Assembly: GCA_050184975.1 (NCBI GenBank)
Contig: JBFWZV010000013.1
Span: 821 to 64,820 of the forward strand
DNA from: Pseudolabrys sp.
Lineage (GTDB): Bacteria; Pseudomonadota; Alphaproteobacteria; Rhizobiales; Xanthobacteraceae
Reading direction: 5' to 3'
DNA: 64,000 bases
The stretch's first letter is position 1, and every line of letters starts with the position of its first letter. A program made the translations under genes and the position numbers. A model generated the notes under the pieces. The model did no database searches and had not been told where the DNA came from. It was given only the letters and a program-made list of their open reading frames with translations. Below, one piece after another: positions 5,063 to 32,660 of the stretch.

Positions 5063-5450
5063 GTCATGGCCGGGCTTGTCCCGGCCATCCCGCTTAGGAA
5101 GGCACAGCGCTTCCTCAAACGATCTCCTCATACAAATCCCGCCACGACGGATTCTGTTGCGCGATGAGCCGCGTCTTGTAGGCGCGCGGCCAGTGCTTCA
5201 TATTCTTCTCGCGCGGGATCGCATCGCGTGACGACGCAAACTCCTCGAAGTGGACCAGCTTGTCGATGTTGTAACGCCGCGTATGTCCCGGCACGATCTT
5301 TTGCTTGTGCTCCTACACACGCCGGACGAGATCGTTCGTCACGCCGACATAGATCGCGCCGCCCGGCCTGCTGGCGAGGATGTAGACGTAGTAGTTGCGC
5401 ATCAGCCGAGTGTCAGGAATCGGGATGGCCGGGACAAGCCCGGCCATGAC
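5063..5450. mobile_element. REP doublet (REPIN-like) carrying a GIY-YIG gene
   Basis: Perfect 30-bp inverted repeat 5063-5092 / 5421-5450 (GTCATGGCCGGGCTTGTCCCGGCCATCCCG); internal landmarks GGCACAG and AATCGGG match the empty doublets at 29792 and 31182. Confidence 0.75.
5115..5402 (-). pseudogene. Small GIY-YIG nuclease family protein with an in-frame TAG at codon 30
   Basis: Manual translation MRNYYVYILASRPGGAIYVGVTNDLVRRV*EHKQKIVPGHTRRYNIDKLVHFEEF...REKNMKHW...NPSWRDLYEEIV; stop at 5313-5315; absent from the ORF track. Confidence 0.88.
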
Positions 5451-5461
5451 CGAATTGAAGC

Positions 5462-5491
5462 CTTGACGCTTGTGACCACGCAAGACTATAT
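5462..5491 (+). promoter_or_regulatory. Sigma70-type promoter CTTGAC-N18-CTATAT
   Basis: CTTGAC 5462-5467 and CTATAT 5486-5491 match the rhizobial RpoD consensus; the same boxes and spacing recur at 34249-34278 with a different spacer. Confidence 0.7.
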
Positions 5492-5607
5492 TCGCATTTA
5501 TATACTTGACAAAAGTACGACTATAATCCTAATTTGAGCCTGCGTGACAGGCCGGTGTCGTCAGTCAGGTAAATAGATGCGTTTCGCCAGAGAAAAGGTG
5601 AAACGCG

Positions 5608-5817
5608 ATGAATCAGAAGAATTACGACGTTGAAATCACTCCTCTGGTGGTCGAGGAGGTGTTTCAGGTATTGGTCCGAAGTGGAATCCAGTCGGAGTTG
5701 ATGGGGGCGGATAGACTACTGGTTGACGAAATGCTTCGTAAGTTTTGTCAGCTTTCCGGGCTTCGGGTGAAGGGCGGCTCAAATGAAACAGGTAAAACAT
5801 CACAAGCTGAAGTCTAA
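5608..5817 (+). CDS. Small hypothetical protein inside IS element 1
   Basis: 69-aa ORF after a hairpin containing AAGGTG; overlaps the 3' end of the minus-strand cargo gene, so it could be a shadow ORF. Confidence 0.4.
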   Translation: MNQKNYDVEITPLVVEEVFQVLVRSGIQSELMGADRLLVDEMLRKFCQLSGLRVKGGSNETGKTSQAEV

Positions 5818-6262
5818 CAAACTCCGTTTTCTCGACAAATTTCCACAGACCGCTTGTCGTTAGCGCCTCTGAGCCAGCAGGATTATGGGACGCCAAAACA
5901 AACACTTCGTCTGGCTCAATTCCAGGCTGTTCTTCGTCACCGTCCTGCCCTAACACATGCCAGTGTATGAACTCATTTCTCGTTTGATCTAGCTGCCTGA
6001 TTAATTTCAAAACGCTTCGCCAGAAGATCTGATATTCATCACCGAATTCGCTCTCAATTAAAGTGTCGATTATTCTGTTGCGAGAGTGAGTGTTTGTTAT
6101 GCGATAAAACACGATGCTTGCCTTTTGCACATCGGCGTCGATTAGGTCTGCGAACTGCAAGCATAGTTGTTGTTCGAGATCAGAGTATGCTTCCAATGCT
6201 GCGGCTCTCGCCAACTGCAACTTTTTAAGTAATTCTGGCGGATCAGATCGAAGGGTATCCAT
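5636..6262 (-). CDS. Passenger protein, putative HEPN-like (RNxxxH) domain
   Basis: 208 aa from the first in-frame ATG (6262); mostly helical with the motif LDQTRNEFIHW; no clear SD. Confidence 0.6.
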   Translation of the reverse strand: MDTLRSDPPELLKKLQLARAAALEAYSDLEQQLCLQFADLIDADVQKASIVFYRITNTHSRNRIIDTLIESEFGDEYQIFWRSVLKLIRQLDQTRNEFIHWHVLGQDGDEEQPGIEPDEVFVLASHNPAGSEALTTSGLWKFVEKTEFVRLQLVMFYLFHLSRPSPEARKADKTYEAFRQPVVYPPPSTPTGFHFGPIPETPPRPPEE

Positions 6263-6410
6263 GGGACAAAAACAACGCTTGTCGGAAACACAAAAGTTGA
6301 TGGGCGCTCTTGTGCGGATGCAGCCAAAGCCGCACGAGGAAATGCGCCTCAAGCCTAAAGCCAAAAAGGCTAAGAGTCCCGCGCGGAAACGCGCTTCCGC
6401 CAAGCGATAA
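6261..6410 (+). CDS. Conserved basic micro-protein (MxPKxHxxM[RK]L motif)
   Basis: MGQKQRLSETQKLMGALVRMQPKPHEEMRLKPKAKK...; motif shared with 32478-32660. Confidence 0.6.
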   Translation: MGQKQRLSETQKLMGALVRMQPKPHEEMRLKPKAKKAKSPARKRASAKR

Positions 6411-6448
6411 ACCGCCTCGCAGTATCCCTTATAAATCGGGGGTTTTGC

Positions 6449-7390
6449 TTAGTGAGTCGGCCGGTACGTCAGGCGCTTGCCTTCGATACCCTTCATTGCA
6501 AGCGCCGTCCGTTCCCCGTCAGTCACGCCGAGACCCGAACGATTGTTGTGGCGGAACTCAAACTCGGTGAGATACCGCTGCAAGTGCTGTTCGCCGCAGA
6601 AGCGATAAGTGCCCTTCATTCCGCGCTTGAAGTTACCAAAGAAATTCTCGACTGCGTTGGTCGTCTGTCCGTCTTTGCCGACATAAAAGCCGCGCTGGTT
6701 CCAGCCATGCTCTACTGTTTTGTGAGCGGCAAACTCGCGACCGACTTGAGTGTAGAGAGGGCTTTCGTCGGTGTGTAATTCGCTGGAGCGGTGAGCGTTA
6801 CGAACCAAAACGTCGCGCACGGTTTCTTTGTTCGCGCGCTGCACATGGAACACGCGAGCGCGGCCAGAGGGCTTCTCGACAAGCGCGACAACGGACGCTT
6901 TCTTGCTGTGGCCCTTACGGTAGGACTTCGCCCGCTTCGACGTGCGGCCATAGTACGTCTCGTCAGCCTGAATGCTGGAGCCTTCGCCACCCATAGGCGA
7001 AGGAGCAAGATCGGTCATCGCTTCACGCAAGCGGTGCATCATGAACCAAGCGGTCTTATAGGTGACGCCGACAAGGCGATGGATTTCGTGGGCAGAGCAG
7101 CCGTTCTTGCCTGAATTGAACAGGTGAGCGGCCATCCACCACTTTGTCAGGGGAACCTTGCTGCGCTCAAAAACTGTGCCGACCGTGACGGTGAACTGGC
7201 CTTTGCATTCGTGGCACCAGTAGAGGCCGGGACGCGCGGACTTGCCTTCGATCTTGCCGATCTTCTCTTGATGGGAGTTGCCGCAGTGAGGACAAATAGG
7301 ACCATCGGGCCAGCGCACCGCCTCAAGGGCTTCGCGGGCCTTGGTTTCGTCCTGAAAGATGGGGTTCTGAAACGTTGCTTTCTTGGCCAT
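6449..7390 (-). CDS. IS1595-family DDE transposase
   Basis: N-terminal Zn ribbon CPHCG..CHEC, ADETYYG, HTDE, TNAVENFFG and GKRLTY; ATG 7390 preceded by AGGGAG. Confidence 0.95.
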   Translation of the reverse strand: MAKKATFQNPIFQDETKAREALEAVRWPDGPICPHCGNSHQEKIGKIEGKSARPGLYWCHECKGQFTVTVGTVFERSKVPLTKWWMAAHLFNSGKNGCSAHEIHRLVGVTYKTAWFMMHRLREAMTDLAPSPMGGEGSSIQADETYYGRTSKRAKSYRKGHSKKASVVALVEKPSGRARVFHVQRANKETVRDVLVRNAHRSSELHTDESPLYTQVGREFAAHKTVEHGWNQRGFYVGKDGQTTNAVENFFGNFKRGMKGTYRFCGEQHLQRYLTEFEFRHNNRSGLGVTDGERTALAMKGIEGKRLTYRPTH

Positions 7391-7463
7391 GTCCGGCACT
7401 CCCTATGACCTGAATCCTAGGGAATGGCCGTACATTTGTCAAGTATATAAATGCGACTATATT

Positions 7464-7901
7464 CCTATCGCTTCATCCACGCGAGGGCGCCGCTCGAGGG
7501 CGTCTCTGGTGGCGGGATGAGGCGCGGTGCCCGCGCGTGACGTTCGCAGCGTCATTCCCGGGCGGTTCCGGACCCCGCCCCTCCGGCACTAGGACCGGGG
7601 CGCGTGGAGCACGCTGACGGAAGGGCTTAAAGCCCTCAACGAAAAGCGCGGCCCGGAACCGAACAGAGCCGCATTGGAGCGCCGAGAGGCGTGCGCGGCT
7701 CGCAGGTTTGTTTGCGCAGGCGCGTAAACTTGCCTGCGGCGCAAGCCGCGCGCCATGTGCCGCAAGGCTCATGGCCCGGACGACCCGAGCGCCCTCCCGG
7801 CGCTCCAGTCCCTCGCACTTCTTTTGAAGCGCGAGCCGCGATCTGGGAGTTCAGGCGTGCCCGCGCCTTTCGAACAACAGGGAGGTTCCCGTGCGCCTTC
7901 C
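7464..7901 (+). ncRNA. Candidate large structured non-coding RNA, copy 1
   Basis: Collinear homology with the reverse complement of 31269-31690; compensatory helices; lies downstream of the reconstructed promoter. Confidence 0.65.
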
Positions 7902-11026: not shown

Positions 11027-11125
11027 AAAAAAAGGAGCCGCCGTTGCCGGCGGCTCGAAGGTGATAACAGGGAGGCGTCAAACAGAGTGGACAGGAGCCA
11101 CTCATGTCCATGAAGATGGACGATC
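11027..11125 (-). ncRNA. Candidate small RNA (three hairpins, CUCCCU single-stranded tract, U-tailed terminator)
   Basis: Hairpins at 11106-11121, 11085-11103 and 11035-11056, followed on the minus strand by U7; 5' end approximate. Confidence 0.55.
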
Positions 11126-11145
11126 TCAGTAATGAACGAGAAAGC

Positions 11146-11160
11146 TTAATGTCGGGTTAA
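11146..11160. promoter_or_regulatory. CtrA-binding box TTAA-N7-TTAA
   Basis: TTAA TGTCGGG TTAA, upstream of the sRNA candidate and rcdA. Confidence 0.75.
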
Positions 11161-11194
11161 GTGCGCGATTTTCCGGCAATCGCGTTTGAGCGGG

Positions 11195-31268: not shown

Positions 31269-31290
31269 AAAAAAGGTGCGCGGAAGCACC
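31269..31290 (-). terminator. Intrinsic terminator ending ncRNA copy 2
   Basis: Minus strand GGTGC-TTCCGC-GCACC-TTTTTT. Confidence 0.6.
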
Positions 31291-31690
31291 CGTATTATTT
31301 CGACGGCGCCGGGGACGCCCGCTTCCCTTTTCAGTCCCTCGAAAAAGCATTTTTGCTTTCCGCGAATTGGGCAAGCCCAACGCGCGGTATCGAGGGGGAC
31401 GGAGCGCCGAAAGGCGCAACCAGTCCGTCTGTGGACGATCCGTTGCCGGATCGCCGCGCCTCTCGGCGCTCCGTCACGGCCTTTGTCCGGTCCGGGCCGC
31501 GCTTTTCGTCGGAGCGGCTTGGATCGCCGCGCCGTCCGTCAGCGAGCTCCTCGCGCCCGGGTCGTAGTGCCCGGGGAGCGGTTCCCGGTCCCGCCCGGAG
31601 CGCGTGGCTGCGAAGCACGCGCCGCAGGGGCCGCACCCGCTCCACTTCAAGAACGCCTCTAGAAGCGCCCCTCGGTGAGCAGGCGATAGG
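31269..31690 (-). ncRNA. Candidate large structured non-coding RNA, copy 2
   Basis: Homologous along its length to 7464-7901; shares ACGAAAAGCGCGGCCCGGA and GGAGCGCCGAGAGGCG; ends in hairpin plus U6. Confidence 0.65.
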
Positions 31691-31852: not shown

Positions 31853-32479
31853 TCAATGAGCCGGGGGAAGTCGCGTCAGCTTTAGGATTCTCGGCTTCAA
31901 ATACTCATCGTCAGAAACGGTCACATGCCAAAGAGTCTGCGCACCTGAACCATAGGCAGAGATAGTGTGGCTTAGCGCCAAGCTGTTCAGGCGCTGGCCC
32001 CACCATCGCGACCTAAAGAAATCATCTGTGTTTGTTTCGATCTGACCAAAGGTCTTAAGGTTTCCCCTGTGCAGGACATTTCCGCACTCATTGTATAGTT
32101 CGATCACTTCGTCTTTCGTAACAATGGCTTCCGGTCTGTCGAGTACGGCCATGCTCCCGTTTTCATCTATGGTGACCTTGGTGGCTGCGGGGAAAAAATC
32201 AGGGTGCAGATGCGACATGGTGCGAAGCAAACGGTCCGCCTGCCAAATCGACTCTATTCGTTTCGACTGAGTGGCCGGAATGTCGCCGTGAGCGATCAGG
32301 CTTGAGATTGCAAATAGCTCGCACATCATCCGCAGTTCGAGATGGCAAAACTCAAAGCGCGGTCGTATGCCAAGCTCCAAGTCTTCGGAAAATAGTGTTT
32401 CAATGACTCGACCTCGGAGAACAATCTCCTGCATAATTCCGACATAGACCGGCTGCCATTCCTCGGAAATGTCCGTCAT
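31853..32479 (-). CDS. Passenger protein of unknown function (possible degenerate HEPN-like fold)
   Basis: 208 aa from ATG 32479 with AGGAG SD; motifs LELRMMCELFAISSLIAHGDI and LYNECGNVLHRG. Confidence 0.7.
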   Translation of the reverse strand: MTDISEEWQPVYVGIMQEIVLRGRVIETLFSEDLELGIRPRFEFCHLELRMMCELFAISSLIAHGDIPATQSKRIESIWQADRLLRTMSHLHPDFFPAATKVTIDENGSMAVLDRPEAIVTKDEVIELYNECGNVLHRGNLKTFGQIETNTDDFFRSRWWGQRLNSLALSHTISAYGSGAQTLWHVTVSDDEYLKPRILKLTRLPPAH

Positions 32480-32660
32480 GCCTTCTCCTAAAAATAAAGC
32501 GCCAGCGTTGAAAAAACGGCAGAGTAAGAAGCTAGAGTCCGAGCTGGATTCCGGCCCGAAGGTCGATCGCAAACGCGATCAGATCATGCGCAACATGCTC
32601 GCGATGCCGCCGAAGCAACACAAAGACATGAAGTTAGGTGCGAAAAAGCCCGGTAAATAG
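32478..32660 (+). CDS. Conserved basic micro-protein (MxPKxHxxM[RK]L motif)
   Basis: ...QIMRNMLAMPPKQHKDMKLGAKKPGK; homologous to 6261-6410; followed by a terminator. Confidence 0.6.
   Translation: MPSPKNKAPALKKRQSKKLESELDSGPKVDRKRDQIMRNMLAMPPKQHKDMKLGAKKPGK

Follow-up and report, generated by a model that had tools for sequence, protein, structure and literature searches.

What brings two different transposable elements to the identical nucleotide of two separate genes? The question is raised by a 64,000-nucleotide (nt) stretch of Pseudolabrys sp. DNA (GenBank assembly GCA_050184975.1, contig JBFWZV010000013.1, positions 821 to 64,820 of the forward strand), referred to throughout as the window. 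The window contains two insertion sequences (ISs) of the IS1595 family, IS#1 and IS#2, each lying in the -10 box of the promoter of one copy of a structured RNA. This RNA family has eight copies in the genome, and no third element of the IS#1/IS#2 clade was found in the assembly (3.5 Mb, 125 contigs). With only two clade elements and eight RNA copies in 3.5 Mb, chance does not explain the shared insertion nucleotide. The explanation offered here, which we consider highly probable, is that a palindrome-selecting, ISNwi1-like clade hit two RNA promoters independently at the same nucleotide. Members of two sub-lineages would each have inserted into a different paralog of the RNA gene, the transposition machinery of the clade selecting a palindrome of ~16 bp, tAGG-AATATATT-CCTa (in target sites, hyphens mark the cuts). 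It is the palindromic motif that is recognized, and the RNA promoters merely happen to carry it.

The boundaries of both elements, their target-site duplications (TSDs) and the empty sites were read from the sequence and bear out the first-pass annotation of this DNA, which had placed two different IS1595 elements at an identical nucleotide in the -10 box. The reconstructed empty sites are CAAG-ACTATATT-CCTATCGCT at locus 1 (IS#1) and CTGG-ACTATATT-CCTATCGCC at locus 2 (IS#2), and at both loci CCTATCGC begins right after the duplication. The native -35 box lies 17–18 nt from the TATATT inside the TSD in each case. All eight RNA copies share the arrangement TTGAC(A/G)-N17-18-TATATT followed by a CCTATC-like sequence, so that the six unoccupied copies stand in as empty sites in paralogs. 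The two elements had also been described as not being copies of each other. Their transposases are 76% identical in protein and 74% in DNA, their terminal inverted repeats (TIRs; 25/26 matches in IS#1, 21/24 in IS#2) differ, their cargo proteins of 208 amino acids (aa) show no mutual similarity, and their orientations are opposite, with the transposase gene pointing away from the RNA at locus 1 and co-directional with it at locus 2. That description stands with one correction, because the cargo length and a small basic open reading frame (ORF) are common to both elements.

Both elements belong to the IS1595 family. Each transposase has the catalytic domain (PF12762, DDE_Tnp_IS1595, E=5e-30 and 2e-32; NF033547, E=4e-53) and an N-terminal zinc ribbon (PF12760, Zn_ribbon_IS1595, E=5e-11 and 3e-12), and each element is bounded by TIRs and an 8-bp TSD. 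The ends read CGCATTTATATAC in IS#1 and IS#2 and GGCAATTATATAC / GGGAATTATATAC in more distant relatives; the TIRs carry an internal TTATATAC motif, and the elements are 1.9–3.8 kb in size, with extra ORFs. Judged by domains, 8-bp TSD, TIRs and passengers, both elements appear to resemble the passenger-carrying ISNwi1 group most.

Relatives of the IS#1 transposase were collected from 80 loci in GTDB species-representative genomes and 80 on JGI metagenome contigs, and element ends were located by TIR and duplication in a TSD-seeded search. An exact 8-bp repeat was present at both ends of 57 genome loci, and a repeat matching at 7 or more of 8 bases at 43 metagenome loci. After redundant records were merged, 100 distinct sites were available from a clade with CGCA-type TIR tips and ~54–94% protein identity to IS#1. 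The target logo of these sites, an analysis that the first-pass annotation had proposed, is symmetric and reaches beyond the duplication. The left flank reads T-4 54%, A-3 71%, G-2 74%, G-1 89% and the right flank C+1 88%, C+2 76%, T+3 69%, A+4 55%; between them the duplication reads A A T A T A T T, with every position at 54–77%. G-1 was found in 88/98 sites and C+1 in 60/68, against a genomic G or C background of 32% (binomial 1e-32 and 1e-21). AGG is present in 56/98 sites, and the TSD averages 6.9/8 A+T. Given this bias at G-1 and C+1, the preferred target is a palindrome of 14–16 bp, tAGG-AATATATT-CCTa, and the duplication is 8 bp long because the cuts fall at its two marked positions. 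The window sites, (A/G)G-ACTATATT-CCTA, fit this palindrome.

The same sites have been used repeatedly and independently. Recurrent hot spots are the region upstream of an S24/LexA-like repressor gene (L014, L023, L052, L138, L150, L176; the gene flanks the transposase-distal end in L014 and L052, the proximal end in L023), the regions upstream of rsmB (L018, L027) and of a DnaA-domain gene (L032, L035), and a promoter followed by TTGATTGATTCC (L040, L142, L161). In one well-supported sub-clade (L029, L037, L183) the TIRs are unchanged but the target is different, ATG-N8-CAT, with a less A+T-rich duplication; its fuller site is cATATG-A(T/C)C(T/C)(C/G)G(G/A)T-CATATG-like and not AGG-AATATATT-CCT. 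A shifted target with the same TIRs suggests that target specificity is encoded by the transposase and is able to shift, and the motif would then be read by the transposase itself. Recurrent, clade-specific targets were also seen in distant ISNwi1-like clades (L044-L048; L049/L055-L057; L070/L075/L078), namely ctc-CCCTGGAG-ggg on Bradyrhizobium-type contigs, agg-AAATAAAT-ccta, and GGGGTCTT-gcca in sphingomonads. In these clades the first four right-flank bases tend to resemble the TIR tip (GGGA, CCTA, GGCA), and a CCTA-type tip would make each insertion rebuild its target.

The frequency with which the RNA is hit was assessed with R1, a covariance model built from the 170-position RNA core. 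At 20/100 sites the core lies 63–139 nt from the IS end and points away from it (11/51 when 320 nt or more of flank is required on each side); the random expectation for such closeness to one of ~10 copies in 4 Mb is ~0.04%. Six insertions (L001, L016, L110, L111, L144, L151) occupy the same position as those in the window, at 63–68 nt from the core (66 and 62 nt in the window), in different RNA paralogs and with different duplications. The other RNA-adjacent insertions lie just upstream of the -35 box, where ...AATTTATT-CCTTGACA gives the same motif, or further upstream. Orientation is mixed, with the transposase-proximal end beside the RNA in 11 cases and the distal end in 9. Sites L008, L030, L038 and L040, where the 5’ sequence is RNA-like or the promoter is of the kind seen in the RNA, were counted as not RNA-adjacent, and R1 finds no core there even at E<=1. 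A decayed relative, L015 (5440-5580), lacks both its cargo-side IS end and the 5’ part of the adjacent RNA, so that the IS interior directly abuts the RNA core, apparently after a deletion next to the IS.

Such repeated hits could also arise if the promoter or RNA gene itself attracted the element, through its open complex, a palindrome-bound regulator or the nascent RNA, with the motif as a correlate. RNA-adjacent insertions do occur at several distances from the core (63–68, 77–107 and 139 nt), many of the other sites are also in -10 or UP-element contexts, and an ATTCCTA element recurs in the RNA promoters in different registers. However, ~80% of the insertion sites are away from the RNA and have the same flanks, the strongest logo positions are G-1 and C+1 at the cut sites, and a sub-clade with a shifted motif exists. 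A position weight matrix (PWM) was built from 46 sites, after exclusion of every site with an R1 match or, as judged by a simple pattern, RNA-like 5’ sequence. Among 3.53 million positions, this matrix ranks the six unoccupied RNA promoters 1, 3, 6, 9, 10 and 18, the two reconstructed occupied sites 24 and 26, and the unoccupied S24-repressor site of this genome 23. The -10/start region of the RNA promoter in this genus reads GG-A(N)TATATT-CCTATC, which is why these promoters are among the best few dozen motif matches in a genome of 64% G+C. Since a matrix without RNA sites places the RNA promoters near the top, motif recognition explains the same-nucleotide coincidence.

No preference for RNA promoters was seen beyond what the DNA motif predicts: in this genome they account for 8 of the ~28 best motif matches (29%), as compared to 20–22% of observed insertions. 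Promoter context, scored as a -35 box at the right spacing or immediately after the duplication, is likewise not enriched. Among real insertion sites, 13% are of the -10 type and 5% of the UP type, as compared to 24% and 16% among the 25 top unoccupied motif sites. Because promoter context is no commoner at real sites than at unoccupied motif matches, motif recognition is sufficient. Neither the ranking nor the context comparison gives reason to think that the RNA gene or promoter activity is recognized, and attraction by the promoter or RNA gene is therefore considered improbable. Insertion inside a repetitive extragenic palindrome (REP) was also not observed; REP-like hairpins lie 6–11 nt upstream of the -35 boxes, outside the duplication, and the flanks of the relatives have an A+T palindrome in common, not a REP. 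The first-pass annotation had inferred that this lineage targets the conserved promoter of a non-coding RNA. Strong specificity and repeated hits on RNA promoters are upheld, at the fraction it had proposed to count (20/100, or 11/51 with ample flank), but what is recognized is a palindrome that is used elsewhere in ~80% of cases.

Selection offers another account, in which insertion is weakly specific for A+T-rich 8-mers and purifying selection spares the harmless sites. In its favor, the RNA is multi-copy (8–18 per genome), so that loss of one copy should be cheap, and both IS-adjacent copies are intact. Selection against harm cannot yield symmetric flanks of 89% G and 88% C or hits at identical nucleotides, and many A+T-rich intergenic sites without AGG/CCT flanks are unused. 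As the explanation for the window this, too, has little probability, but it could act alongside motif recognition.

The two insertions in the window are independent events. When adjacency to the RNA is mapped onto a maximum-likelihood tree of 96 transposases, it has to change 16 times, and well-supported branches force 11 or more of these changes. The tree separates IS#1 from IS#2, which belong to different supported clades and are divided by relatives from other genomes; IS#1 clusters with four further elements that are RNA-adjacent, IS#2 with two that R1 does not place beside this RNA. In the RNA tree, the sister of the occupied copy W1 is C2, which is unoccupied, and W2 clusters with two other unoccupied copies, C78 and C1. 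The identical TSDs, and a transposase DNA identity (74%) similar to that of the RNA paralogs in the core (71%), would be accounted for by one ancestral insertion that was carried along when its RNA gene underwent segmental duplication and that was later inverted and supplied with other cargo, but this origin, foreseen in the first-pass annotation as the contrary case, is contradicted by the placements in both trees, by the opposite orientations and by hits on the same position in at least 6 other genomes or metagenomes, in different RNA paralogs with different TSDs, and is extremely improbable.

Several points weigh against independent insertion guided by the palindrome. Genomic insertion sites are survivors, and selection against harmful insertions also shapes the list. 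Some of the ’non-RNA’ sites used to train the matrix may be unrecognized relatives of the RNA, and the ranking covers one genome, that of the window, in which the two occupied RNA promoters have the lowest scores of the eight. The three insertion positions around RNA promoters (in the -10 box, just upstream of the -35 box and further upstream) could hint at attraction beyond one instance of the motif. In addition, no strain was found in which either locus is empty: in 61 same-genus genomes the joined flanks of locus 1 gave a match only at their ABC-transporter end, at 85% identity or less, and exact-protein look-ups returned only a 100% identical contig or nothing.

The consequences for transcription follow from the position of the cut. 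Because the duplication contains the -10 box, both junctions retain one. In a consensus scan, the native -35 box and the upstream copy form predicted promoters that read into the IS. At IS#1 this is TTGACG-18-TATATT, directed into the cargo end, and at IS#2 it is TTGACA-18-TATATT, directed at the transposase, in agreement with the redirection proposed in the first-pass annotation. Separation of the RNA from its -35 box had been proposed as well. The RNA is indeed cut off from its own -35 box, but the IS end supplies a new -35-like hexamer, TTGTCA, which lies 16 nt from the other -10 copy and would probably keep the RNA transcribed. If these predicted outward promoters work, silencing of the RNA is improbable. 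The same scan shows a mirror-image TTGTCA-16-TATAGT directed outward at the other IS end, and the same TIR hexamer, read inward, starts the predicted IS#1 transposase promoter (TTGACA-17-TAGGAT) inside the TIR. Since the target AATATATT is palindromic and itself resembles a -10 box, insertions typical of the clade would be expected to create outward promoters on both sides.

The coordinates of these features are collected below.

Table. Features of the two insertion loci and copies of the multi-copy RNA (window coordinates, except for the unoccupied RNA copies, given as contig:position)
Feature	Position	Strand	Details
Native -35 box of W1, TTGACG	5463-5468	+	TTGACG-18-TATATT, 10/12; with left TSD copy, reads into IS#1
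Left TSD copy of IS#1, ACTATATT	5485-5492	+	Contains -10 hexamer; same sequence at 7456-7463 and in both locus 2 copies
IS#1, IS1595 family (ISNwi1-like) with passenger genes	5493-7455	-	1963 bp; TIRs 5493-5518 and 7430-7455
IS#1 cargo ORF	5636-6262	-	208 aa; without assigned family
IS#1 small basic ORF	6261-6410	+	49 aa; divergent from cargo gene; no family
IS#1 transposase	6449-7399	-	316 aa; Zn ribbon and DDE_Tnp_IS1595
Predicted outward hybrid promoter, IS#1	7436-7463	+	TTGTCA in IS end, 16 nt, TATATT in TSD; 10/12; faces W1
Right TSD copy of IS#1, ACTATATT	7456-7463	+	Followed by CCTATCGCT
RNA paralog W1	7464-7900	+	Conserved core 7521-7691
RNA paralog W2	31269-31690	-	Core 31457-31637; terminator-like hairpin 31291-31274
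RNA-side TSD copy of IS#2, ACTATATT	31698-31691	-	Followed by CCTATCGCC
Predicted outward hybrid promoter, IS#2	31718-31691	-	TTGTCA-16-TATATT; faces W2
IS#2, same clade as IS#1, other sub-lineage	34247-31699	-	2549 bp
IS#2 cargo ORF	32479-31853	-	208 aa
IS#2 small basic ORF	32469-32660	+	63 aa; counterpart of IS#1 49-aa ORF; no family
IS#2 107-aa ORF	33029-32706	-	
IS#2 transposase gene	34185-33244	-	
Upstream TSD copy of IS#2, ACTATATT	34255-34248	-	
Native -35 box of W2, TTGACA	34277-34272	-	With TSD 34255-34248, reads into IS#2
Unoccupied RNA copy	C2:95245	+	
Unoccupied RNA copy	C6:88206	-	
Unoccupied RNA copy	C84:9806	-	
Unoccupied RNA copy	C78:7281	-	
Unoccupied RNA copy	C1:121402	-	
Unoccupied RNA copy	C68:15678	-	

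The IS1595 family is usually described as using A+T-rich 8-bp targets. A literature search returned no paper on a defined palindromic target or on recurrent promoter hot spots for ISNwi1-type elements. In the ISfinder consensus, the ends of the ISNwi1 group are of the ggnnatTAT type, with extra ORFs between the TIRs. According to the summary of Siguier, Gagnevin & Chandler (2009) given in PMC8101967, members of the family have an N-terminal zinc ribbon that is absent only in the IS1016 group. The ISNwi1 group with passengers (’transporter IS’, PMC8101967) is like the window elements in its zinc ribbon and DDE_Tnp_IS1595 domain, 8-bp TSD, TIRs with TTATATAC and extra non-transposition genes.

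Comparable target choice is found in other families. According to PMC9333248, which cites Olasz et al. (1998), IS30 is a DDE element that prefers a long, nearly palindromic target consensus and repeatedly hits a natural hot spot, as the present clade does. IS30 differs in belonging to another family, in its 2-bp staggered cuts and circular or dimer intermediate, and in targeting its own inverted repeats, which was not seen in the CGCA-tipped clade. The REP-targeting ISs (IS1397, ISPpu9/10 and others; PMC1525189, PMC12288879) likewise use a multi-copy conserved non-coding sequence as a renewable landing site that spares genes, but theirs is a REP hairpin recognized by IS3 and IS110 enzymes, whereas here it is an A+T-rich promoter palindrome and REPs are merely nearby. 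Hybrid promoters, in which an outward -35-like hexamer in an IS end pairs with a flanking -10 box, are known (reviewed in PMC9330008); the difference here would be that the preferred target is itself -10-like and two-sided promoters the rule.

In yeast, Ty3 and Ty1 integrate at tRNA gene promoters, to which they are tethered by Pol III factors. These elements, too, find safe harbors where redundant small-RNA genes have their promoter or start; for the present clade no tether need be invoked, as the DNA motif is sufficient for the pattern. Multi-copy RNA promoters would be tolerated landing sites. A further step would be to regard the IS lineage and the RNA family as co-adapted, with a target that mimics the -10/start of a strong, redundant RNA promoter, an outward -35 that rebuilds promoters on both sides, and a specificity that is protein-encoded and evolvable. 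Within this proposal, retargeted sub-clades appear to be represented by ATG-N8-CAT, CTC-CCCTGGAG-GGG and GGGGTCTT-GCCA. We consider co-adaptation rather unlikely; if true, it would parallel, for a bacterial DNA transposon, the way in which Ty elements target tRNA genes.

IS1595 elements are usually credited with little choice of target apart from A+T richness. This clade instead behaves almost like a site-specific integrator, and its 16-bp palindromic target can be read. Such behavior seems new for this known IS family, and target switches seem to have taken place in related sub-clades. Recognition of the palindrome explains the pile-up of independent elements at the same promoters in soil Alphaproteobacteria, makes the next landing sites predictable from sequence alone and offers a simple model for the reading of target DNA by a DDE transposase. 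Practical use is limited unless the specificity turns out to be transferable. The insertions also flag a multi-copy structured RNA (8–18 copies per genome) whose promoters are the main landing pads.

This RNA is ~300–420 nt long with its own sigma-70-type promoter, and its 170-position core has a conserved multi-helix fold, with compensatory changes in 16/46 predicted pairs among the eight copies. R1 finds 2–18 copies in 12/18 same-genus genomes and also detects the RNA in one other family of the order. W1 and W2, although beside an IS, score as intact family members (171 and 131 bits). Rfam searches, at the gathering threshold for the whole window and at E<=10 for the RNA region, returned only BjrC1505 elsewhere and noise, and a literature search on the RNA found nothing relevant. 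No downstream gene is common to the eight copies. A cobalamin or ykkC-type riboswitch was considered but dropped for want of an Rfam signal or a common downstream gene and because the conserved blocks come in another order. The 3’ part ends in a hairpin, an A-rich stretch and GGG, which could pair with the hairpin loop in a pseudoknot-like manner. The unassigned RNA is a separate matter and possibly more interesting than the IS targeting.

Two of the top-scoring motif sites outside the window, C15:554 and C10:26469, are promoters (TTGACC/TTGACG-16-TATATT/TTAAAT) that precede GC-rich sequence with several hairpins carrying UCGCAA-type loops; these may represent a diverged subfamily of the RNA that R1 misses. 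In a complete same-genus genome with 18 RNA copies (G009; L201-L218), the promoter is nearly identical in most copies and reads cAG-AAAATAGT-CC-TTGACT-cttATTCCTAGGAcat-TATAGG. In these promoters the -35 box is preceded by the IS target motif, and the spacer contains a TTCCTAGGA palindrome. The recurring ATTCCTA element of the RNA promoters might be a regulator site.

Searches of the cargo in Pfam, NCBIfam and PADLOC gave no match. The small, very basic ORFs of both elements have a P-K-x-H-x-x-M-K/R-L motif in common and no family match. Directly upstream of locus 1, a GIY-YIG nuclease-like gene, split by a stop or frameshift (5313-5483 and 5115-5294, both on the minus strand), is embedded between REP-like hairpins; such hairpins abut the -35 box at locus 2 as well. 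Window positions 11028-11167, on the minus strand, clearly match the BjrC1505 alphaproteobacterial small RNA (RF02356, 119 bits).

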